Part shown: positions 2,289-58,594 of the stretch, in pieces
Numbering within the stretch: the first letter of the stretch is position 1
Layout of the letters: each line of letters starts with the position of its first letter
Assembly (NCBI GenBank): GCA_003971905.1
Contig: RSEE01000132.1
Span: 1 to 64,000, forward strand
Source: Moniliella sp. 'wahieum'
Taxonomy: Eukaryota
Direction of reading: 5' to 3'
Length of the DNA: 64,000 nucleotides
Translations under genes and position numbers: made by a program
The notes under the pieces: model-generated
Told to the model about the DNA's origin: nothing
The model's database searches: none
The model's input: only the letters and a program-made list of their open reading frames with translations

Positions 2289-5200
2289 TTACGAGGCGAA
2301 TAGGGTCAACTGAATGGGACGAACAAGAGACTGGTAGAGGTCGAGCCGGACCAGTTCGACCAGCTCGGATGGGGTATCGCGCCACGCAACATAGGCGGCG
2401 CCCAGAACAAGTCCAACGCAAAGGAACACATCGGGATGAATGGGCGGAATATGCGCTTCGTCACCTGGAGCACAATCGAAATGAAGCCCAGCACGCGGGC
2501 AGGCCAACCCAACAACTCCCAGACCGCACCCGAAGAGAAGGCTGGGCCTGCGGCACCGCCTCCCACGGAGCCCAGGGGGGCGCATAAATGCCATAAACCA
2601 AGTCATCATCTGGCGCGTCTGACTTGATCGATTGAATGGCGAGGTCGGCTTCCATTGGGCCCGTTTCCTCCCCAAGTTCCTGAGCCACTTCCACGGCCCG
2701 ATGGTGCTCTGCAGCGTTCGAAGTTTCACGGCTGGATGGAGTGGAGGGGATATTGATGGTGGTCACATCAACCTCCTCCAAAGTAGTGTCTCCCTCCCCA
2801 CTCATCTCCGCGATACGCACTTCGAGGTTGCAAGAGGGATCCGGCTCAGGAATAGTGTCCGCCTCTGGGGGCGAGATCTTACTATCGCCATCAACAATGA
2901 AGGTGTCAGGCGCGGGTTCTTGGAGGGAAATATATGTTGTCCCATCAGTGACCGTCGAGAGAATGAGGCGGTCACCATCGACGATCGGCTGCTCCTCCCA
3001 AACATCTTCTTTGTCCAAGTCTCCCTCGGGGTCCATCCCGTCCGTCGGTGCCAAAGCCCCCTCTTTCCCCATAGCGGCCAGAGCGGTGCGTAGAATTTCA
3101 AGCTCAGGACCCTGTTCCGAAGCAATGTTGCCGTTGATATCGAGGTAGTGCAGAGCGGGCCATGCACCTTGTTCGATGGTCGCAGCAAGCGTGGTAAGGG
3201 AGGCGCCTACGAGTTCACAGAACTGAAGTTCCAACCGGGTCAGGTGCGGCGTAGTTCCCTTCGCCAGAGCATCGACAAGCATTAGGCTTCCACGAGGACG
3301 CATACGGCATCCGCCCAAACGCAGCTCCCGTAGCAGGGGCCAAGACTTGAGTGCATTGGCAATCGCCCGTGCACCCCGGAGATTGGCCAAGTTGTCACTC
3401 AGGTCAAGAATGGCAAGGTTCGAGTTGTGCGCAAGGCCCAGGACTAGGTCTTCGAACGCCCTCAATTCAAGCCGGTTTTCTTTCATTTGTCTCCTCCAGA
3501 CCGGGGTGAGCTTCAAACACGTTTCGCCATGAAGCCACACCTCCCTCCTCCAGTTTCTGGCCGGAGTAGTGGAGCACTCGCAGCAAAGATCCTCCCGGAG
3601 ACTTGTGGCAGCACCGCGCGTGATTGCTTGGGCCACTACACCCCCAGCCTCAGAATCGAGTCCGTTGTTGGACAATTTGAGGGCATGTAGACTACCCGAT
3701 TGCTCCAACAGGGGAACGAGAGACATGAAGCTGTTCTCATCCAAACCGTTGTTCGACAAGTTTACCTCCTCCAGGGACCCTTGAGCCAACGATGCCAGTA
3801 CCGGAACCAGCAAGTCAAGGGAGTCCGTGATGTCGTCTGCCCCGCAGTTGGTGAACATGCCCGACAAGTCCATCAACCGCAACTTGGTCTGCGTCTTGAG
3901 AAGCTCGGCCAGAACTTGACACCCGCCTACACCCCACGTGTTCCCTCCCAAGTACACTTCTTCCACCTGCGAGGTCGCAAGGGGTTTGAGGTGAGGCTCA
4001 GCTTCGGTAGCCGTAGTGAGCAACAAGTGGTTGCCTGCAATGCTAAAAATACGCGAAGGACATATATCCTCCGAGGGAAGCTGCGCAACCAGATCAGCGG
4101 GTGCCCCGACTTGCGCAGAGAGAGTGGGCGACTGGGCAGAGCATGTGGAGGTTGATTGAAATACTTGATCCTTCACGGTTGTGGTGGAATCCACCACCCC
4201 CTTGTCCGCCTCATATTTGACCGGTACTTCCACCTCAGTTGCTTCTGCGTTTTTCAGAGCGTCATCGTTCGGAATAAACTGCACCACGGCAAATGTCAGA
4301 CTCTGCACAACACAGGCGATGGAGAAAGCCACATACCTCTTTTGATAGTTCACCCTGTTCGCTGTCGCTCGACTCGTGCATCGTCGAGCTATCGTCGTTG
4401 TCGCTCTCAATATCGCCTTCTCCCTCCGGATCCATCTCATCCGTGTCACCAAGCGCGTCAGGTCGGCCCAGTGCGGCGAGAGCATCACGCAGCTTTTCAA
4501 GCTCGGGACCGTCCTCTTCAGCAAAGTTCCCATTGACGTCCAACCGGTCCAACGCCAGCTTGTGCAGCGCAATCACGTCGGCCAGCTCGAGCAGAAGACG
4601 ACCAGGGATGTCGCATAAGTCCAGACCCAGGCGGCGTAGCTTTTTGGGGGCGGCATTACGCAGCGCGTCGATAACCAGCCGCGCACCCTCGGGGCGAAGC
4701 AGCGTCTCGCTCAGCTGCAGTTCCTCCAGCTCGGGCCAATTGGCCAGCGCCAGTGCGACCGCACGAGAACCGCGAAGCGTTGCTGTGTTATCTTGCAGAT
4801 CCACGACCCTCAACTTGGGGTTGGCGGCCAAACCGTTGGATACTAGCTCTGCCACGCCCTTCATCCTGATCCCGTTCTGGTGCATTCGGACCACTTCCCG
4901 TCCCATGGGCAGCCAGAGCACGGGCAAACGCTGCCGCACTTCCGTTCTCTAGCCGGTTGCGGCCAATAATCAGGACTTGAGCTTGGATTGCTGGCCAGCC
5001 TGCTTGGCACGCTCGGCACTGCGGGCCAAGGCGTCTGCCACGACATTCCCGCCTGCCGGCCCGAGTCCATTATTTTCCAGCTTGAGCACCCGGAGTGAAT
5101 GGGCCTGCTCCAGGAGAGGCACCAGGGGAAGAACAGTCCTCTCACCCAACGCGTTGTCGGACAAGTCCACCTCTTCTAATTGGCCGTGTGGTGGCACGAG

Positions 5201-6968
5201 GCGCGCCAACACCAAGCAAATTGCCTTCAGGGCGAGTGGGATCTCAGTGATCATTCGTCCCGTGAACAGATCGTCCAGCCGGGCTGATCTGAGCGTTGTG
5301 ATCGTAGCCAGTGTGTCGGCGAAGGCCTCGGCGGCCTCGACTCCCATCGTGTTCCCACCCATGACCACTTGCTCAACGCCGACTTGGGCGCGCAAGGTAC
5401 ACAGATACGGCTCGATGTCGCTTGCCGTTTCTAACGAAGACCTTTGCCTTGAATGGAGAAAATCGGTTGGGCTGGACCAAAGATGCTTCGTCCCCATTTT
5501 CGTCGGGGACGGGGATATCATGGGGTATGGCATCGGGGGCATCATCCACTCGTCAATGTTAGACTTCTCCTCGCTGTCCTCTTCGGGGTTTACCTCGGTC
5601 TCCTTCTCGATCGCCTCCGGGTTCTCATCGATCGCCTCGGGTCTCCTCGACCACCTCCGGGTTCTCGACCACCTCCGGGTTCTCCTCGACCACCTCCGGG
5701 TTCTCCCGATCGCCTCTGGGTTCTCCTCGATCGCCTCTGTTTCCTCCTCAATCGCCTCCGTTGTTTCCTCGATCGCCTCCATTTTGTCCTCGATCGTCTC
5801 GGCCCCCTCGTCCTGGACCACGACCTCGTCCGGAGCATCACTTAGATCATCATCTGAAATATCGGACAAAGGTGTCTCATCCACCTCTGTAACATCCACC
5901 AATGCGCTGCCCAGGCCTTGCGCTTCCAGCGCTTGACGCAATGCCTCAATCTCTGGCCCTTCCCCATCCACCAAGTTGCTGTTCACGTCCAGATGAGTGA
6001 GACGGGGCCAAGGATTGGAGGCGATCAGGTGGGATAATGCCATAATGTTTGCCGGGCTGAGCTCACAACAACTCAACCCGATCTGGGTGAGGGATGCATG
6101 CCGTTCGACCAACAGCGCGTCCATCAAGAGCTGACCTCCTTTAGGCCGAAGAAGTGTATCAGTCAAGTGGAGCTTCTCGAGGTTGGGCCAGAATCGGAGA
6201 CATTCAGCAACAGCCTTGGCACCGCGTAAGGTGGCAGTGTTGTCACCAAGGTCGAGAATGCGCAAATGGGGGTTCTTGGCGAGGCCCGAGCGCACGATCA
6301 CCTCAAATCCTTGCATGCGGATCCCGTTCTGTTCCATACGCACTTCTTGCAAGGTGCCGTGCGCGGCGAGCGCACGCGCCCAGTTCAATGCGCTGCCATC
6401 CTCCAGCCGATTGCGCCCGCATTCAAGCACCTGCAACTGAGACGACTCGCCTTGGGCGCAGCTTTCTGGGCGCCACGGGCCAACGCATCAGCCACAACGA
6501 TACCTGCCTCGGGCCCCAGACCATTGTTGTTAAGCCTGAGAACACGGAGACCGTTGGCAGCCTCGAGGAGAGGGACGAGCGGCGAGCATACACGTTCGCC
6601 AAATGCATTGTCGGACAAGTTGACCTGCTCCAGTGCCCCGCCAGGGGCACGAGGCTGGTGAGGGCAGTGCAGAGCGCAGTGAGCGCGCCGGGGATCTCGT
6701 CGATGCTGCGGCTGGTAAAGATGTTGGACAGATCAATGGAGCGGAGAGAGGTACAGGTGGCGAGAACCGTAGCGAGCGCCTGGGCGGCAGGGACGCCGAT
6801 GGTGTTGTCGCTGAGGCGCACCTCGTCGACAGCGCCGCGTTGGGCTAGCTCTGCGAGCTCGGCGGCATACGTGGCTGCATCCTCAGCGGAATCGAGGGTG
6901 AGGCCGCGTCCAGCAAGCGAGAAGATGCGCGGGGCGCTCTCGGCGTCACTCTCGGCAGCGCCAGACAT
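2289..6968 (-). CDS. Ran GTPase-activating protein (Rna1/RanGAP)-like, with three tandem LRR modules separated by acidic linkers; 3' end uncertain (2289-2461)
   Basis: Motifs NIFTSR/DLFTGR..EIP, LSDNAFG/LSDNALG, LNNNGLGP, GRNRLE, QNGIR and DLxDNT in ORFs 6423-6968, 6385-6618, 4970-6436, 4262-4939 and 2461-4572; in-frame intron 4279-4336 (GTATGT..CTGAC..CAG). Confidence 0.85.
5604..5800 (-). repeat. ~21-bp coding tandem repeat encoding acidic EAIEE(N/T/E)(P/T) units in the RanGAP linker
   Basis: Repeated tcgatcgcctccgggttctc-like units; translation EAIEETTEAIEEETEAIEENPEAI. Confidence 0.85.
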
Positions 6969-18200: not shown

Positions 18201-19193
18201 GTACGTCACCCCACCCTGGCTACCAAGAGCACCTTTGTGCCCAACGACGTCTCCCTTGGTGGGAAGGCGGAAGATGTGATGCTTCTCACGGGCGGCAATA
18301 TGGCCGGTAAGTCCACCTTGGCCCGCACCGCCGCCACCGCCGTTCTGCTCGCTCAAATCGGTTGCTTTGTCCCGGCTGAAAGGGCCGTCGTGGCGCCCGT
18401 GGACCGGATCGCGTCCCGAATGGGCGCAAACGACCAACTCTTCCACCGCCAGTCTACCTTTATGGTCGAATGATGGAGGCTTCTCGGGTACGTTTTTTTC
18501 GCTCCCCTGGGAAATTTGGTTCTGTCACATGGATTGGCTTGGGGCTATGTCCTGCTCTTGTGGCCCGGGCACGCAAGACGACACGCTGATGGCTGGCTTA
18601 CTGACAACACTCTTTGGTTACTTGTTTTGTTTGGTTTGATGGTTGGTTTGGTGGGGCGGTGGAACGGATAGATTGTGGCGCAAAGCACGCCGCGTTCGTT
18701 GGTCATTCTGGATGAGTTGGGACGCGGGACATCGACGTACGATGGCCAAGCGATTGCCTATGCCGTGCTGCACCACCTCTTGGCCGCACGCGATGCCGAG
18801 GCTTCTTTTTGACGCACTATGCTGCGCTCGCACGCGCGTTTGCGCGTACCCGCGCGTCGCTAACCGACACATGCGCGTGCTGGTCGAGCCAGGACAGGAC
18901 GACGTGGCGTTCACCTACCAGTTGGTCCCGGGCATTGCTCAAGCAGTTACGGTACCCAAGTTGCTCGTCTGGCCGGGTGGATCGCTCGATCACCCACCAT
19001 GCCCACCAGGTCAGCACCCAGTTCCAACGTGTCTCTGAACCCGACACGCACACGCCCAGCCCCGTTCAGGCCTGCACCCTTCCGACTTTGCCTTTCTTGT
19101 GCGCCTGGCTACCGAGGGCGAGCAGGCGTGCGTCGCACAGCTCGACTCGTCCGACAAGCTGTCCTCGCGCTCCCGCTTCTCCCACCACCCTGA
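15269..19193 (+). CDS. MSH6: DNA mismatch repair protein MSH6 (MutS family); introns near 15834-15897 and 18488-18671; many indels
   Basis: N-terminal PIP box [23 protein letters not shown]...[15 protein letters not shown]; Walker [47 protein letters not shown]. Confidence 0.92.
15366..15481 (+). repeat. 12-bp tandem repeat (ggagaccaaggc) in the MSH6 N-terminal region
   Basis: About 9-10 near-perfect copies followed by degenerate ccaaggccaaga units. Confidence 0.95.
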
Positions 19194-25630: not shown

Positions 25631-27006
25631 CTAGGCATGACGCATCTGCAGCGTAGCCTCGATCATGCGCCAAAAAGAAGCGGCCAACTGCTTGTCGGTG
25701 TGACGTTTGGCGGTCGACCACCAACTCACGTACGGCCAAAGCGAGATATTTTCCTGCCGCGGTTCGTTGTGGTACCGCACGTACAGGCCGAGGTGACGCT
25801 GGAACAAGCGCTTCGGATCCTGCTCCTTGTACGCTTTAAACTGCCACGTTTGGCCCGTGGTGAAGATGGCTGCCACGCGGCTCCACGCGTCCGAAGGCGC
25901 ACCCGGTCGCGACGGCCCAGCTAGCTTCTGAAGAGCATCCACATTGTCCACCACGAGGAACCGCGTCGGTTTCGGTGCTTGACCAGGCACGTTGGACCGA
26001 GCAAAGCTCATGGTATGGCTAAGTGTAACCACGGTCTCCGACGCCGCGCGCTTCGCGCCGTGCTTGGTCCGGGTGCACAAACACGCTTCCTCCAACAGTT
26101 GCTTGACATTAAACATATTGACCAACGCCGTAGGCGAATTGGACAAAAGTAAAATCGGATCCTGAGCACGCTGTTTGCGCACCAAGCCGCCCGCTGGCGC
26201 ACTGCTGGCACCGGCGCCGCAACAACTTCTTTCGCACGACCCATAACCAGCTTCCATACTTTCCAGCCGATCCGCAATCGTCGTTCGGAAATGAGAAAAG
26301 TCACTGGTCTGGGTCCAAAACTGCGTACCATGCGCCGCATCGTTCCGGTTGCGCGGCACCATCTCCACTTCGCTCCGCAGTTTCTTGACAAACACTTTAT
26401 CCGCCTCGTCCGGCACGTACGTACGTTTGGCCGCCGTCGGGGCGGCAGTTGTCGTTGTTGCGGTCGCGGTCGAAGTCGCTGGCGCTGTCGAAGTCGAAGT
26501 CGACGTCGCTGTGTGTCGCTGTTGCTGGGCTGGCGCGGGGGGTCCTTGTCTTTCACCGCTGCGGGCGCGGAAGAAGGCGGGGGTCGTCTCCTTCTTCTCA
26601 TCGCCTGCGAGGAAGCACGCCATCCCATTCCGCACCTTGCCCAGCAAGTACTCCAAGATCTCCGCGCGGTAGATCAACTCGAGACGGGCGACCTTGGCGG
26701 CAGCACGGAGACGGGTGTAGGTGCCGCTGGACTCGTCTTTGGTCCGAAGAGCAAAAACCAACGCGTCTAATGGAAGCAGTCCATCGGGCTTGGAGCTCGC
26801 CGAACCATCGCGCGCCGAGGCGCGGGTGGCGGCAAGCCGGGTGGGCTGCGAGGCGGGGAAAGTCACTTCGCCCGTGGGCAGCTGGAGGCGCACGTGGCTC
26901 GCCTGCTCAATCGCATCGACGGGCTTGCCATCAGCGAGGAGCGTGATGTTGCTCAGATCGCCCGTGGCGCAACGGCAGCGCGAAGCGCGTCCAGGGCGTC
27001 AGCCAT
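25631..27006 (-). CDS. CDC73: Paf1 complex subunit Cdc73
   Basis: DPILLLSNSPTALVNMFNVKQLLEE; RFLVVDNV; WSRVAAIFTTGQTWQFKAYK; KRHTDKQLAASFWRMIE. Confidence 0.9.
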
Positions 27007-39367: not shown

Positions 39368-40344
39368 CTAGTCCTTGGGCTGCAAGTCAAACAGGACAAA
39401 TTCCACGTTTTCCTTGCCAACCGAGGCCAATTCGATCCGCTCGCCCACTCGGGCGCCGGCGATGTATGCGCCATCACCCTCTGCGAGGGTGGTTGTGCCC
39501 TTGGCTGTGGTCACCGACAAGATGCCCGGAGTGGAGGGAGTAGCATCTGCACTTCCCGCAGAGTCCGGCTTGCTGTACCCACTGCTCATGGCTACGTGGA
39601 GGTAAAGCCAGCGCTCGGAGCCCGTGCGGCAGCCACGTCAGTATCGGTGCCAATGACATGGGAAACGTTGTGGCCCGGCTCGAGCACCGAGACACGGGTG
39701 ACGAGGAGTTGTGTGCTGGGATGGCGCGACCCGGGGGCAAGAGCCCGTGGCAGCCTGTTCTTCTGGTGTGAAGGTCGACCAAGGCTTGATGAGGGTCTGG
39801 AGTTTGTTGCGCTTATCGTTTTCAGTGCTGTTGTAGGTATAGCGCGGCGGCAGCCGCGTTCGTCGGGAATGTACCAGATCTGCAAAAAGTGGCACTCGGT
39901 TTCGGGTATTGTGTTGTACTCGCTGTGCACGATGCCGGTGCCTGCCGAGGTGAACTGCACTTGGCCCCGTCGCAGCGTCTCGACATTTCCCATCGAGTCA
40001 CGGTGGGTCAACTCGCCCCCGACAACATAGGAGAACTGGAGCAAGGTGTAGGTCAGGAAAAGAGCTGCAGACGAGGGAAAGGGCTGAGGCCATACAATCT
40101 CAAAGTTCTTGTGGGGGTGCGGGGGGAAGCCCTGGGTGGGGGCGACCCTATCTTCGTTGATGACGCGCAAGTCGGAGAAGCCTGGGAAACGGTGATCCCA
40201 ATAGGAGGCGAAAGAAAAGGTGTGGTAGGACTTGAGCCAGCCAAGGTCCGCGTGGCCACGCTCGCTGGACCGGGCGGGAGGACAGTGGTGAGCTTGGCGA
40301 GCTCGGCGGGGGGGCGGCGGAGAGGGCGCGGCGGACGAAGACAT
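39368..40344 (-). CDS. Pirin-like cupin (YhhW/quercetinase type), copy 1; intron ~40037-40094
   Basis: [22 protein letters not shown]...[62 protein letters not shown]. Confidence 0.9.
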
Positions 40345-40770
40345 GGCGCGCAGGGGCAGGACGGGCGGGGAGGTTGGTGGGGCCCGCAGGCAGCGGATGG
40401 CGGAGGAGCGTGCGGGGCGCAGCGGGGAGGAGGCGGAGCATGGGAGGCGATGGAGGGGGGGAAGAGGCCGGACGCGCCGGGCTGTCTATCTATTTTCGCG
40501 TAGCAGCTAAACGGGCGCCAATTAGCCAACCTGCGTCCGTCGGCGACTACCCATCACTTGCAATTCAGCTGCGGCCCCGCACCCCACACTGCCCGTCTGC
40601 CTCCCCCGCGACGATGGCCCGTGTTTGACCTGTCTGAGCTGTGCGGGGCCGCAGCAGACCGGAGAGGACTGGGAGGAATGGTAATCGACTAGCAATACAA
40701 TACACCTTGAAGCCCGACCGCCCTTCCTCCGTCCCCACCGCCACCACCAACCGCCCCGGCTCCCACGCAC

Positions 40771-41740
40771 ATGTCGCTCCCTCTGGCTGCCAACGCCAAC
40801 GTCGTCAAGCGCCGCTGGTGTGACCGCGGCCACGCCGACCACGACTGGCTCCGCTCCTTCCACACTTTCAGCTTTGCCGACTACTATGACCCCCGCTTCA
40901 TGGGCTACAGCAACCTGCGCGTCATCAACGAAGACCGTGTTGCACCCGGTACCGGTTCCCTCCCCATCCACACGCTGGCGCGGAGATTGTAAGCGAACCC
41001 CTTCCCTCCTGTTCCCTTTTCTTATTTTTTTTCCCTGACGGAGCCAAAGACTGACTTTGTCAAACTTGTTCCCCACTCAACAGTTCTCCATTGTGCTTGC
41101 AGGCGAGCTGACGCACAAAGACAATATGGGCAACGTCGAAGTCCTCAGCCCAGGGGAGGTGCAATTCACCAGCGCGGGCAAGCCGCCCGGGATCAAGCAT
41201 AGCGAATACAATGCCAACAAACACGACGAATGCCACTTCCTCCAGATTTGGTACACCCCCGATGACCGCAACCTGCCTGCACGTTACTATACTGCCCCCA
41301 AGTCCGACTGGACCGACGAGAGTGACCTCATCAAGCCCTGGTCTACCCTCACCCCGAGGAGCAGGCCCGCACCGGCCTTCTCCGCCCGGCGAAGCCATCC
41401 CGGCCCACTCCTCCTTGGTCACCCGCGCCTGCACCCTCAACCCGGAAGAGAGTGTGAGTCACGTCGTTGGTATAGACACGGATGTCGCTGCGCAAACAGG
41501 AACCGAGCGGTGGCTGTATGTCCACGTGGCACAAGTGTCGGGGTACAAAGACCCAGAGCTTGCGACGTTAAGCTCAAGAAGGAGGGGCACCTTGTCATTC
41601 GCACGGCTACTACTACCTCGAGCTTGAGGAGGCGACGGTGCGTTTATCAAGAATGTCCGGGTTGGGGAAGCAGGTGGAGTTTGAGTCCAAAGGGCCCAAC
41701 GCGGCCACCTTTGTCCTATTTGACCTTGGCCAAGGAGTAA
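40771..41740 (+). CDS. Pirin-like cupin (YhhW/quercetinase type), copy 2; intron ~40989-41083
   Basis: [78 protein letters not shown]. Confidence 0.9.
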
Positions 41741-46723: not shown

Positions 46724-47795
46724 ATGGGTCTTCTCGACATTGTTCCCGCTGGCGTCGTGCAGGGCAAGGACGTGTACAAGGTGTTTGACTATGCGCGCGA
46801 GCACCACTTTGCCATTCCCTCTTTCAACGTCACATCGTCCAGCACGGCGGTGGCTGTGATGGAGGCCGCGCGCGACGCCAAGGCGCCCGTGATGGTGCAG
46901 GTGTCCAATGGCGGTGCGGCCTACTGGGCCGGCAAGGGCATCGACAACAAGCAACAGAAAGCTTCGATCGAAGGAGCGATTGCGGCTGCGCACTATGTGC
47001 GCACTATTGCTCCGTTGTATGGCATCCCGGTCATCATGCACTCGGACCACTGTGCCAGGAAACTGCTGCCTTGGTTCGACGGTATGCTCGAGGCTGACAA
47101 GGCGTACTACAAGGACCATGGCTTCCCGCTCTTCTCGTCCCACATGCTCGACTTGTCCGAGGAGTCAAAGGAGGACAACATCCAGATCTGCAAGAAGTAC
47201 CTTAAGCAGATGGCTCCCATGGGGATCTGGCTCGAGATGGAATTCGGTATCACGGGCGGCGAAGAGGATGGCGTGAACAACGAAGGCGCAGCTAACGCTA
47301 GCCTCTTCACCTCCCCGCAAGACATTTGGGACATTTACCGTGAATTCTCCGAGATCACACCCAACTTTCCATCGCCGCTGCGTTTGGTAACTGCCACGGA
47401 TCGTACCAGGTCGGCAGCGTCGTTTCCGCCCCGACATTCTCCGCGACCACCAAGAGTACGTCAAAAGCAGACTGGTTCACCAAGGAGAACCCGGTCTTCC
47501 TTGTCTTCCATGGCGGATCGGGATCGACCAAGCAAGAAATCTACACCGCCGTCAAGAATGGCGTGGTCAAGATGAACGTCGACCTGACACGCAGTTTGCC
47601 TACCTCGAAGGTATCCGCGACTATATCTTCAACAAGAAGGCGTACCTCCAACACCAGGTGGGCAACCCCGAGGGCCCCGATAAGCCCAACAAGAAGTTCT
47701 ACGACCCGCGCGTGTGGGTGCGCGAGGGCGAGAAGACCATGTCCAAGCGTGTCCACGAGGCACTGGAGGACTTGCACACGGTCAACACGCTTTAA
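46724..47795 (+). CDS. FBA1: Fructose-bisphosphate aldolase class II
   Basis: FAIPSFNVTSSST; QVSNGGAA; HSDHCARKLLPWFDGM; SSHMLDLSEE; EFGITGGEEDGV; VFHGGSGS; NKKFYDPRVWVREGE. Confidence 0.96.
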
Positions 47796-51779: not shown

Positions 51780-52115
51780 ATGGTCCAGCGCGTGACGCTC
51801 CGCAAGCAAAACCCGTACAACACCAAGTCGAACCGCCGCACGGTGGTCAAGACCCCGGTGGTAAGGTGGTGACGAAGCACTTGAAGAAGCTCGCTGCGAG
51901 TCCCAAGTGCGGTGACTGCCACGCTCCCCTGGCCGGCATCAAGAGCTTGCGTCCGCGCGAATTCGCCACTGTGTCCAAGCGCCAAAAGCACGTGTCGCGC
52001 GCGTACGGCGGAAGCCGGTGCGGCGCCTGCGTTCGTACCCGTATCGTTCGCGCTTCTTGGTTGAGGAAGCCAAGATGTCAAGCAGGTCCTCAAGAACTCT
52101 GAAAAGAGCAAGTAA
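51780..52115 (+). CDS. RPL34: 60S ribosomal protein L34; probable 5'-UTR intron 51619-51779
   Basis: MVQRVTLRKQNPYNTKSNRRTVVKTP; PKCGDC...LAGI..LRPREFATVSKRQKHVSRAYGGSRCGACVRTRIVRA. Confidence 0.95.
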
Positions 52116-52552: not shown

Positions 52553-52648
52553 GGCAATGTGCCCGAGCGGTTAAGGGATTGATTAGAACAGCAATGTCTA
52601 ACCATCAATTAGGCTCTGCCTGCACAGGTTCGAATCCTGTCATTGTCG
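52553..52648 (+). tRNA. tRNA-Ser(AGA) with a ~15-nt intron
   Basis: Acceptor stem GGCAATG/CATTGTC, anticodon stem ATTGA/TCAAT with TT-AGA-A loop, intron cagcaatgtctaacc, long variable arm, T arm GGTTCGAATCC, downstream T6 Pol III terminator. Confidence 0.93.

Positions 52649-57199: not shown

Positions 57200-58594
<1,395 letters not shown>

Follow-up and report, generated by a model that had tools for sequence, protein, structure and literature searches.

The window, the 64-kb stretch of DNA analysed here, carries three full-length Rna1/RanGAP modules in tandem on the minus strand. The evidence as a whole is best explained by a single gene, presumably read as one transcript, that would encode a protein of ~1,470–1,485 residues with three RanGAP modules, two of them well conserved and one degenerate. 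We consider this account likely; the judgement covers the gene model, its origin, its function and the reading of its frame breaks jointly, and it builds on what was observed directly: the homology and limits of the modules, the signals of the intron, the fusion in relatives, the lost residues and the frame breaks throughout the window. The multi-module layout is unusual, but not unique. RanGAP switches off the nuclear-transport GTPase Ran. In yeast and animals it is regarded as an enzyme with a single domain, and Ran-gradient models take each molecule to have one catalytic site.

Three RanGAP modules in tandem

The modules, called M1, M2 and M3 in the order of translation (Table 1), are recognised by their similarity to Rna1p of S. 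pombe. A 505-aa ORF (4970–6487) matches the Rna1p chains 1yrg_A / 1k5d_C with an E value of 3e-50 in two stretches: query residues 17–240 correspond to chain residues 159–375 (the C-terminal half of M1 and its acidic tail), and residues 355–495 to chain residues 17–153 (the N-terminal half of M2). A 703-aa ORF (2461–4572), which holds M3, matches residues 4–357 of the 386 residues of 1k5d_C (E value 1e-35). The homology of the N-terminal half of M1 is covered by tblastn and a frameshift-aware alignment. In tblastn with three RanGAP queries, exactly these three modules were found in the 64 kb, and no fourth RanGAP module. The remaining tblastn matches in the window are three weak ones at 37.0–37.3 kb and 60.7 kb, all to the acidic tail of a single query.

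Similar to S. pombe Rna1p (1yrg, 1k5d), all three modules consist of an RNI-type LRR domain, which aligns over nearly its whole length, and an acidic stretch directly after it, which is shortest in M3. They start with related motifs (IFSLAGRGL in M1, from 6926; IFSIQGKGL in M2, from 5463; IFSIAGNHL in M3, from 4050). The first-pass annotation had described three RanGAP-type modules at these places, each opening with IFS(L/I)xG and ending in an acidic tail, and the translations of all three bear this out. Its remark that the modules are too diverged to be an echo of the assembly also holds, because their protein identity is only 43–51%; at the DNA level they resemble each other in short patches alone (68–81% identity). 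Rna1p is a single domain of ~386 residues, whereas the window gene has three such domains in series followed by a long tail, and its M3 is devoid of the conserved arginines.

Table 1. Features of the RanGAP locus (window coordinates; nt, nucleotides)
Feature	Position	Strand	Description and evidence
RanGAP (Rna1) gene	6968–2461	minus	Probably one gene with three LRR modules and one intron
Start codon (MSGAAES...)	6966–6968	minus	Frameshift-aware alignment opens at P0121 residue 1 (MADAAES...) at 6968
M1	5837–6968	minus	Complete Rna1-type LRR domain and start of acidic tail; PDB match to Rna1p, tree, residues
Two apparent 1-nt deletions in M1	6459–6647	minus	At ~6641–6647 and ~6459; frameshift-aware alignments
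Acidic linker 1	5464–5836	minus	21-nt tandem repeat at 5606–5800, heptads EAIEENP / EVVEENP
Three apparent 1-nt deletions before and inside M2 start	5436–5548	minus	At ~5548, 5480 and 5436; frameshift-aware alignment
M2	4337–5463	minus	Complete LRR domain and acidic tail, ends at exon boundary ..ELSKE; PDB match, tree
Compensating pair in M2	4898–4987	minus	−1 at ~4975–4987, +1 at ~4898–4907, around the GRNRLE segment; alignments
Intron, 58 nt	4279–4336	minus	GTATGT donor, CTGAC branch site, CAG acceptor; in-frame link between M2 and the M3 exon
Linker 2, 76 codons without Met	4051–4278	minus	Open in the M3 frame; no ATG between acceptor and M3
M3	3013–4050	minus	Complete, strongly diverged LRR domain and short acidic stretch; 1k5d_C match
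Compensating pair in M3	3490–3603	minus	−1 at ~3603, +1 at ~3490, around the degenerate GRNRLE-equivalent segment; alignment
C-terminal tail	2464–3012	minus	Family motif AFSSGAVWELL at 2542–2510; frame-0 stop at 2461–2463

Gene model

The protein would have a beads-on-a-string plan: M1, an acidic heptad linker, M2, an acidic stretch, a short linker, M3 and a tail of ~170 residues. Its predicted size is close to the roughly 1500 residues proposed earlier. The reading frame is closed on the 5′ side by an in-frame stop 32 codons upstream of the ATG at 6968. The M1–M2 junction lies within the stop-free ORF 4970–6487, which relies on compensating single-base breaks, as suspected in the first-pass annotation (there as 4970–6436). 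The corrected reading contains neither a stop nor a Met between the two modules, and the acidic linker ends less than 100 nt before M2 begins. The repeat in this linker has a period of 21 and 9.6 copies (TRF), and its units show three single-base deletions (within 5698–5713 and 5633–5646) and one in-frame deletion of 3 nt. By its sequence, the M1–M2 part is one coding unit, because the related ORF P0121 has both modules in one unbroken frame and three more relatives fuse them.

M2 and M3 are connected by the intron, in the very frame (..KE/FIPN..) and with the very boundaries proposed before. Its branch site lies 16 nt 5′ of the acceptor, and splicing would join ..SKE to FIPND... CTGAC branch sites are also present in the MSH6 and pirin introns within the window. 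Exon 2 is free of stops over 605 codons, whereas the two alternative frames contain 16 and 27 of them. No start codon is available to M3 itself, the first in-frame Met being ~60 residues into the domain.

The 3′ end of the gene is more likely between ~2505 and 2461; the lower bound of 2289 given earlier belongs to the stop of another frame. The tail probably carries a 1-nt deletion in a C7 run at 2571–2583. It appears to close with a C-terminal motif typical of Ustilaginomycotina RanGAPs: the tails of the Tilletia walkeri, Jaminaea, Acaromyces and P0174 proteins end in ..AA(F/M/I)GAV.EL(L/M).., and in the window gene this motif stands after M3, not after M2. No Pfam family matches the tail or the motif in a Pfam scan.

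Frame breaks

The gene contains ~13 single-base frame breaks over 4.4 kb, 11 of which behave as 1-nt deletions; some fall in homopolymer runs. The breaks in M1 have conserved residues on both sides and leave no room for an intron. At the start of M2, the IFSIQGKGL motif is in a different frame from both of its flanks, and how the reading frame runs through the poorly conserved linker is not certain in detail. The −1/+1 pairs of M2 and M3 bracket the same homologous segment, and M1 is also broken at the start of that segment, a coincidence that chance errors would not easily produce. Within the pair in M2, the assembled main frame has two stops; within the pair in M3 it stays open, so the latter may be a real compensated frameshift.

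The breaks are most likely consensus errors of the assembly and not mutations, because four housekeeping genes in the window are broken alike. The Pfam domains of the class II aldolase, RPL34e and ferrochelatase each pass from one frame to another where an intron would not fit, and in MSH6, 17 nt stand for six profile positions just 5′ of a GTACGT donor (a break located by the MutS_V profile coordinates and by reading of the sequence, PDB searches with short MSH6 pieces being uninformative). All four breaks behave as 1-nt deletions. A Pfam scan of the small ORFs around two pirin genes and NSUN2 did not tell introns and frame breaks apart. The Cdc73 homologue has no break in its 1,365-nt ORF (25634–26998), so the error density is uneven. 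Programmed frameshifting and tiny introns at the breaks were rejected, as no length is missing and the housekeeping genes share the defect. Thus, the indels suspected in the first-pass annotation exist, and they are best read as errors of the assembly.

Relatives and origin of the modules

Four relatives, known here solely as ORFs from assemblies of public read sets (P0121, P0001, P0002 and P0003), carry the same fusion. P0121 (952 aa) has the counterparts of M1 and M2 (its modules A and B) in a single unbroken ORF with the same N-terminus and Met as the window gene, with which it shares 523 of 872 aligned residues. P0001, P0002 and P0003 have two modules per ORF, the first of which is cut at its N-terminal end. 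Like the window gene, all four fuse orthologous M1-type and M2-type modules and have SK(A/E) at the same position. Their ORFs run out 5–18 codons after it; unlike the window gene, they are free of frame breaks, and their ORFs contain neither M3 nor the tail. The two-module fusion is therefore found in 4/4 members of the window's clade. The first-pass annotation had tied the novelty of a multi-module RanGAP to its not being the norm of the lineage, and in this clade it is the norm. The AlphaFold2 model of P0121 has two confident LRR domains (residues 14–364 and 544–891, pLDDT mostly ~90) connected by a low-confidence linker of 179 residues (pTM 0.45).

In the tree, all modules of the window gene and its relatives form one clade (support 100/99). 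M1 is 63% identical to P0121 module A and is its sister (96/97), and M2 is 65% identical to module B and is its sister (100/99). The M3 end branch is 1.52 long, compared to a median of 0.3. A recent copying of M2 into M3 is rejected (AU test, p 0.018), and derivations of M3 from before the A/B split, from the A type or from the B type each have a p value of 0.12, none being favoured over the others. The tree thus appears to place the origin of M3 before the split from the P0121 species. A word-index search for an M3 counterpart in the relatives returned 18 distant RanGAPs only, and none of the 1,503 hits of an exhaustive HMMER search was specific to M3, the two-module P0121 and P0003 being on top. 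Since no M3 counterpart was found, the genes of the relatives may truly end after module B. The array would have arisen by internal tandem duplication of a unit composed of an LRR domain and its acidic tail, in an ancestor common to the window species and several relatives.

Conserved residues and predicted activity

Residue conservation was assessed over 98 alignment columns that are at least 90% conserved in 111 single-module RanGAPs. M1 keeps 82/98 of them, M2 80/98 (and two more at break positions) and M3 52/98; in the comparison set, the T. walkeri modules keep 83/98 each, the Acaromyces protein 86/98 and the Jaminaea protein 95/98. On the 3′ side of the first break, M1 and M2 are as conserved as intact RanGAPs. 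As in Rna1p, M1 and M2 retain FT(G/S)R, NNGLG and GRNRLE (FTSR in M1, FTGR in M2). In M3, FTGR is replaced by FTNC and GRNRLE by SGQKLE, with a loss of all three conserved arginines.

By our own count on the 1k5d_C alignment, the FTGR arginine is presumably Arg74, and it is reportedly important. The two GRNRLE arginines are residues 168 and 170 of chain 1k5d_C and 193 and 195 of the human chain 9b62_G, which we take to be Arg189 and Arg191 of PMC13317620. According to PMC13317620, the activity of budding-yeast Rna1p with both GRNRLE arginines mutated is unaffected, and in light of this result the functional weight of the arginines lost from M3 is not settled.

M1 and M2 are probably both active as GTPase activators of Ran, which would place two catalytic sites on flexible linkers in one polypeptide. 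M3 is probably catalytically weak or dead; it keeps its fold and an open frame and might be in decay, or else serve in binding or regulation. Thus, the protein is probably a GAP with two sites whose third module is degenerate, because M1 and M2 keep the conserved residues, and M3 has a long branch and lacks the three arginines. The multivalent RanGAP envisaged in the first-pass annotation is thus probably two-valent. A small GTPase is encoded at 54.5–55.9 kb of the window; its translation is Rab-like rather than Ran-like, and Pfam assigns it to the 'Ras family' only.

Alternative explanations

An alternative that we regard as unlikely is a two-module gene that comprises M1 and M2 and stops at 4262–4264, with M3 and the tail being a relic of the 3′ portion of some older gene, or else an N-terminally short protein expressed separately. 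The early end of the relatives' ORFs, the failure of the word-index and HMMER searches to find M3 in them and the strong degeneration of M3 are all in its favour. It does not explain, however, why canonical intron signals restore the frame exactly, why exon 2 is open throughout, why the family motif follows M3 and why the tree dates M3 before the split from the P0121 species, and a separately expressed M3 would have to start at a Met well inside the domain. Three tandem genes with separate promoters and start codons would account for the completeness of the LRR domain and the acidic end in every module, but this arrangement is very improbable given the M1–M2 reading free of stops and Met, the short distance before M2, the four relatives that read through this junction and the absence of a start codon in M3.

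The remaining two alternatives concern the quality of the sequence. If the frame breaks were real, the locus would be a decaying pseudogene or array, with a working RNA1 elsewhere in the genome. The number of breaks, their clustering at corresponding segments of M2 and M3 and the residues lost from M3 point in this direction, but aldolase, RPL34, ferrochelatase and MSH6 are broken at a similar density and cannot all be dead. Disabling mutations specific to the locus, the mark of a pseudogene, are not what is found: the breaks are nearly all 1-nt deletions, in part in homopolymers, the corrected RanGAP frames have no stops, and M1 and M2 remain conserved past the first break. We judge decay to be decidedly improbable. 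An artefactual triplication (a mis-joined or echoed repeat) is conceivable in an assembly this error-prone, but it is the hardest to credit, at odds with the low identity between the modules and with separate orthologues of M1 and M2 in P0121. A single three-module gene remains the preferred reading.

Multi-module RanGAPs in other lineages

The first-pass annotation had taken fungal Rna1 to have a single LRR module, but a Tilletia walkeri protein model (UniParc UPI0007DF88FD, 2,458 aa; partial KAE8261660.1) has three, each with an acidic tail. This protein has a long disordered tail with the same C-terminal motif (..AAFGAVWELMR) as the family of the window gene, and the VWFA part at its N-terminus probably stems from a neighbouring gene merged into the model. 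A newer T. walkeri model (P0126) has one module, with a leftover contig of 2.8 kb. The T. walkeri modules share 90–94% identity and group in a clade of their own (100/100), apart from the window clade (100/99), so their duplication was either independent or homogenised. A multiplication shared with Tilletia is not seen in the tree, but concerted evolution in Tilletia could hide it. Unlike M3, none of the T. walkeri modules is depleted in conserved columns.

Outside fungi, predicted proteins with two RanGAP LRR modules in tandem are found in two Ichthyosporea (Amoebidium and Ichthyophonus), and a three-module predicted RanGAP is found in the nematode Steinernema hermaphroditum (KAK0418355.1), whose nearly identical copies might be an effect of assembly or annotation. 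According to the tree, these multiplications are separate duplications in unrelated lineages, and none of these proteins has a degenerate module like M3. No description of a multi-module RanGAP was found in a literature search whose coverage leaves out most subscription journals. Sd-RanGAP, of the Drosophila Segregation Distorter system, comes from a separate extra copy of the gene, is truncated and mislocalises. The window locus resembles it in that a duplication involves RanGAP, but it differs in being an in-frame internal multiplication that is kept across species and shows no sign of drive. The present observations do not speak to the Ran-gradient regulation or genetic conflict suggested in the first-pass annotation.

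A broader interpretation is speculative and rather doubtful: module multiplication would be recurrent and selected, with at least four origins (this clade, Tilletia, Ichthyosporea and the nematode). [quoted passage not shown]

Assembly and annotation can easily collapse or split repeated modules, as in the two T. walkeri models, and single-base errors such as those in the window can make multi-module genes look dead. A fungal clade with two intact modules and a degenerate third one in its only visible RanGAP gene would be a natural test of whether Ran-GTP hydrolysis is tuned through valency, through tethering or through modules that are pseudo-enzymes, a question to which the three other lineages add parallels.

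Three RanGAP modules on the minus strand

Between position 6968 and about 2461, the minus strand encodes three regions homologous to the entire LRR domain of S. pombe Rna1p (M1, M2 and M3, in transcript order). A 505-aa open reading frame (ORF, 4970–6487) matches the Rna1p chains 1yrg_A and 1k5d_C (E 3e-50) in two stretches, which represent the C-terminal half and acidic tail of one module followed by the N-terminal half of the next, and a 703-aa ORF (2461–4572) matches chain residues 4–357 of 386 in 1k5d_C (E 1e-35). A tblastn search with three RanGAPs finds exactly three modules and no fourth across the 64 kb; the only other matches are three weak ones to the acidic tail of one query, at 37.0–37.3 kb and 60.7 kb. 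M1–M3 belong to the RanGAP/Rna1 family, and the three modules proposed by the first-pass annotation are borne out by the structure-chain matches, the tblastn search and a frameshift-aware alignment. The annotation also held the modules to be too diverged for an assembly echo, which is correct: protein identity is 51% (M1/M2), 43% (M1/M3) and 45% (M2/M3), and the DNA is 68–81% identical in short patches only. The divergence is thus old, and an assembly echo is ruled out. The G+C content of the first 12 kb of the window is 48–66%. A fungal-specific transcription-factor domain is present in the window, and the closest RanGAP relatives are basidiomycetes.

Positions of the features in the window
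Feature	Position	Strand	Remarks
M1	6968-5837	minus	frameshift-aware protein-to-DNA alignment
21-nt tandem repeat	5606-5800		9.6 copies, within the first acidic linker; translates to heptads EAIEENP / EVVEENP
M2	5463-4337	minus	frameshift-aware protein-to-DNA alignment
M2–M3 intron	4336-4279	minus	58 nt
M3	4050-3013	minus	frameshift-aware protein-to-DNA alignment
C-terminal motif AFSSGAVWELL	2542-2510	minus
RanGAP frame breaks (approximate)	6645, 6459, 5705, 5640 (two), 5548, 5480, 5436, 4980, 4903, 3603, 3490, 2577	minus
Segment between paired breaks, M2	4898-4987	minus
Segment between paired breaks, M3	3490-3603	minus
Class II fructose-bisphosphate aldolase, region with break	46772-47607		frame changes between Pfam positions 163 (end, nt 47344) and 168 (start, nt 47368)
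Ribosomal protein L34e, region with break	51780-52054		frame changes between Pfam positions 26 (end, nt 51857) and 25 (start, nt 51851)
Ferrochelatase, region with break	57577-58088		frame changes between Pfam positions 204 (end, nt 57810) and 203 (start, nt 57822)
MSH6-type MutS homologue, region with break	18282-18800		17 nt in place of 6 MutS_V positions, directly before a GTACGT donor
Formyltetrahydrofolate-deformylase-like gene	1011-2027	plus	ACT domain and complete Formyl_trans_N (181/181 profile positions)
Pirin-family gene 1	39595-40485	minus
Pirin-family gene 2	40711-41737	plus	intron of about 90-100 nt with CTGAC branch site
tRNA (Rfam)	52553-52648	plus	96 nt, 42.1 bits

The deformylase-like gene and the RanGAP gene are convergent, with their stops about 430 nt apart, and the two pirin-family genes are arranged head to head. 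The length of the tRNA found by Rfam would allow an intron; ARAGORN reports no tRNA in the window.

Joining of the modules

The fusion of M1 and M2 is secure to near certainty, because it is read through in relatives and because the junction in the window holds neither a stop nor a Met. P0121, a 952-aa ORF of a relative retrieved by protein search, starts with MADAAES (MSGAAES in the window) and runs unbroken from the counterpart of M1 through a long acidic linker into the counterpart of M2, with 523 of 872 aligned residues identical to the window. In three further two-module ORFs (P0001, P0002 and P0003), the first module, which is cut at its N-end, reads on into a complete second module. In the window, M2 begins less than 100 nt beyond the acidic linker, an interval in which the corrected reading has no stop and no Met. 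The P0121 linker also appears to carry, at residues about 425–480, a partial extra module consisting of a C-terminal cap and the start of an acidic tail (..LSFNGNLAREDGSEPEALRVALDTL..DDLALLDDLS..), a sequence that suggests internal duplication may be ongoing.

The junction of M2 and M3 was claimed to be an in-frame intron, and this holds. The acidic stretch of M2 ends with ..ELSKE, followed by a GTATGT donor; a CTGAC branch site, a word that recurs in the window's MSH6 and pirin introns, lies 16 nt upstream of the CAG acceptor; and removal of the intron keeps the frame open into FIPNDD... Exon 2 is open over 605 codons, with 16 and 27 stops in the other two frames. Translation of the 76-codon linker between this intron and M3 contains no Met, and the earliest in-frame Met of M3 lies about 60 residues inside the domain. 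The RanGAP tails of Tilletia walkeri (P0308), Jaminaea rosea (P0165), Acaromyces ingoldii (P0004) and another relative (P0174) are long and disordered, contain a DL..ELY patch and share a common end, ..AA(F/M/I)GAV.EL(L/M) and one or two further residues, which is preceded by basic residues and is not covered by any family in a Pfam search. The window has this terminal motif after M3. The ORFs of four relatives stop 5–18 codons past the homologous SK(A/E), which resembles read-through into an intron; a true gene end would also fit. The earlier one-gene proposal is thus largely supported: the M1–M2 part is firm, and from the intron, the lack of Met and the position of the tail motif it is likely that all three modules form a single gene.

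Frame breaks

There are about 13 frame switches in the RanGAP coding sequence, none with missing length, and the corrected frames contain no stops. Two breaks are in M1, three in the 21-nt repeat, three directly before or at the start of M2, one −1/+1 pair each in M2 and M3, and one in a C7 run ahead of the C-terminal motif; 11 of the 13 act like 1-nt deletions. The repeat has 20-nt and 19-nt units among those of 21 nt, with one base lost in each of three units and three bases in one unit. Breaks in the aldolase, L34e, ferrochelatase and MSH6 genes likewise act like 1-nt deletions (4/4) and leave no space for introns. As no organism can be without all four of these housekeeping genes, the RanGAP breaks stem from consensus errors in the assembly and are therefore uninformative on whether the gene is alive. 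Over the assembly, such 1-nt breaks seem to occur about once per 300–500 coding bases, at an uneven density, given that the 1,365-nt ORF of a Cdc73 homologue has no break.

The placement of some breaks calls for a caveat. Each module has a break in the variable loop just ahead of the GRNRLE repeat (about 6459 in M1). M2 and M3 each have another one of opposite sign 80–110 nt further on, so that both pairs flank the same homologous segment, the one with GRNRLE. Such a coincidence would rarely arise from random errors; placement of breaks by the aligner in the least conserved stretch may explain part of it. The assembled frame of M3 is open through this segment, and the M3 pair may therefore be a real compensated frameshift.

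Conservation and putative function

Retention was measured over the 98 alignment columns in which 111 single-module RanGAPs reach a conservation of 90% or more. Jaminaea keeps 95 of them, the first and second modules of P0121 90 and 83, Acaromyces 86, the T. walkeri modules 83 each, M1 82, M2 80 (with two more at break positions) and M3 52. M3 reads FTNC vs FTGR in the family and SGQKLE vs GRNRLE. Counted along the 1k5d_C alignment, the FTGR arginine is Arg74; it is said in Rna1p structure papers to be important. The GRNRLE arginines are residues 168 and 170 in 1k5d_C and 193 and 195 in human chain 9b62_G, the latter taken to be Arg189/Arg191 of PMC13317620 with an assumed four-residue offset. 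The weight of their loss for M3 activity is uncertain, because the preprint PMC13317620 points in different directions: mutation of the budding-yeast equivalents left activity unaffected, and simulations suggested that human Arg191 is an arginine finger. Owing to the lost arginines and 46 changed conserved columns, M3 probably does not work as a full GAP.

The AlphaFold2 model of P0121 contains two confident LRR domains with 179 low-confidence residues between them (pTM 0.45); the arrangement is predicted to be flexible, with no fixed two-domain body. The window gene would most likely encode one polypeptide with two independent putative Ran-GAP sites on acidic disordered linkers, behind which would come a degenerate third LRR module and then the tail bearing the conserved terminal motif.

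History of the modules and other multi-module RanGAPs

In a maximum-likelihood tree built from 34 module sequences, the modules of the window and its relatives form one clade (100/99) within Ustilaginomycotina-type RanGAPs, beside Tilletia and Acaromyces. M1 pairs with the first module of P0121 (96/97) and M2 with the second (100/99). M3 falls with neither type and has a long branch (1.52; median 0.3); it has evolved fast, and no database search gave a counterpart of it. The AU test allows its placement beside either type (p 0.12 each) but rejects an origin by recent copying of the window's M2 (p 0.018). From these pairings and AU tests, the duplications are older than the split from the relatives' species.

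No published description of a multi-module RanGAP was found in a search that reached few subscription journals, yet the layout is already in databases, unremarked. A 2,458-aa T. walkeri model (P0308) has three modules, mutually 90–94% identical, and the same tail motif as the window gene. In the newer model, P0126, there is a single module, and a 2.8-kb contig left over (2,816 nt) consists of module sequence only, hence the newer assembly probably collapsed the repeat. The VWFA-type region at the start of both long T. walkeri models resembles a neighbouring gene merged into them. The RanGAPs of the ichthyosporeans Amoebidium and Ichthyophonus have two modules each, which pair across the genera as first with first and second with second, placing that duplication, as judged from the sequences, before the split of the two genera. 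In a model of Steinernema hermaphroditum, three near-identical modules are present. The layout is thus recurrent, yet unusual.

The assumption that fungal Rna1 has a single module stands as a rule but is not universal, given T. walkeri and the window's clade. In that clade multiple modules are the norm, an outcome that the first-pass annotation had listed as refuting. The parallel drawn with Segregation Distorter does not fit: Sd is reportedly a truncated extra RanGAP gene, whereas the window gene is an in-frame multiplication conserved across species. The idea of genetic conflict gains no support from these data. In architecture, the window gene is a genuine departure for a central regulator that normally has a single domain, though it does not amount to a new kind of system; it opens the testable question of RanGAP valency and of a possible pseudo-enzyme module.
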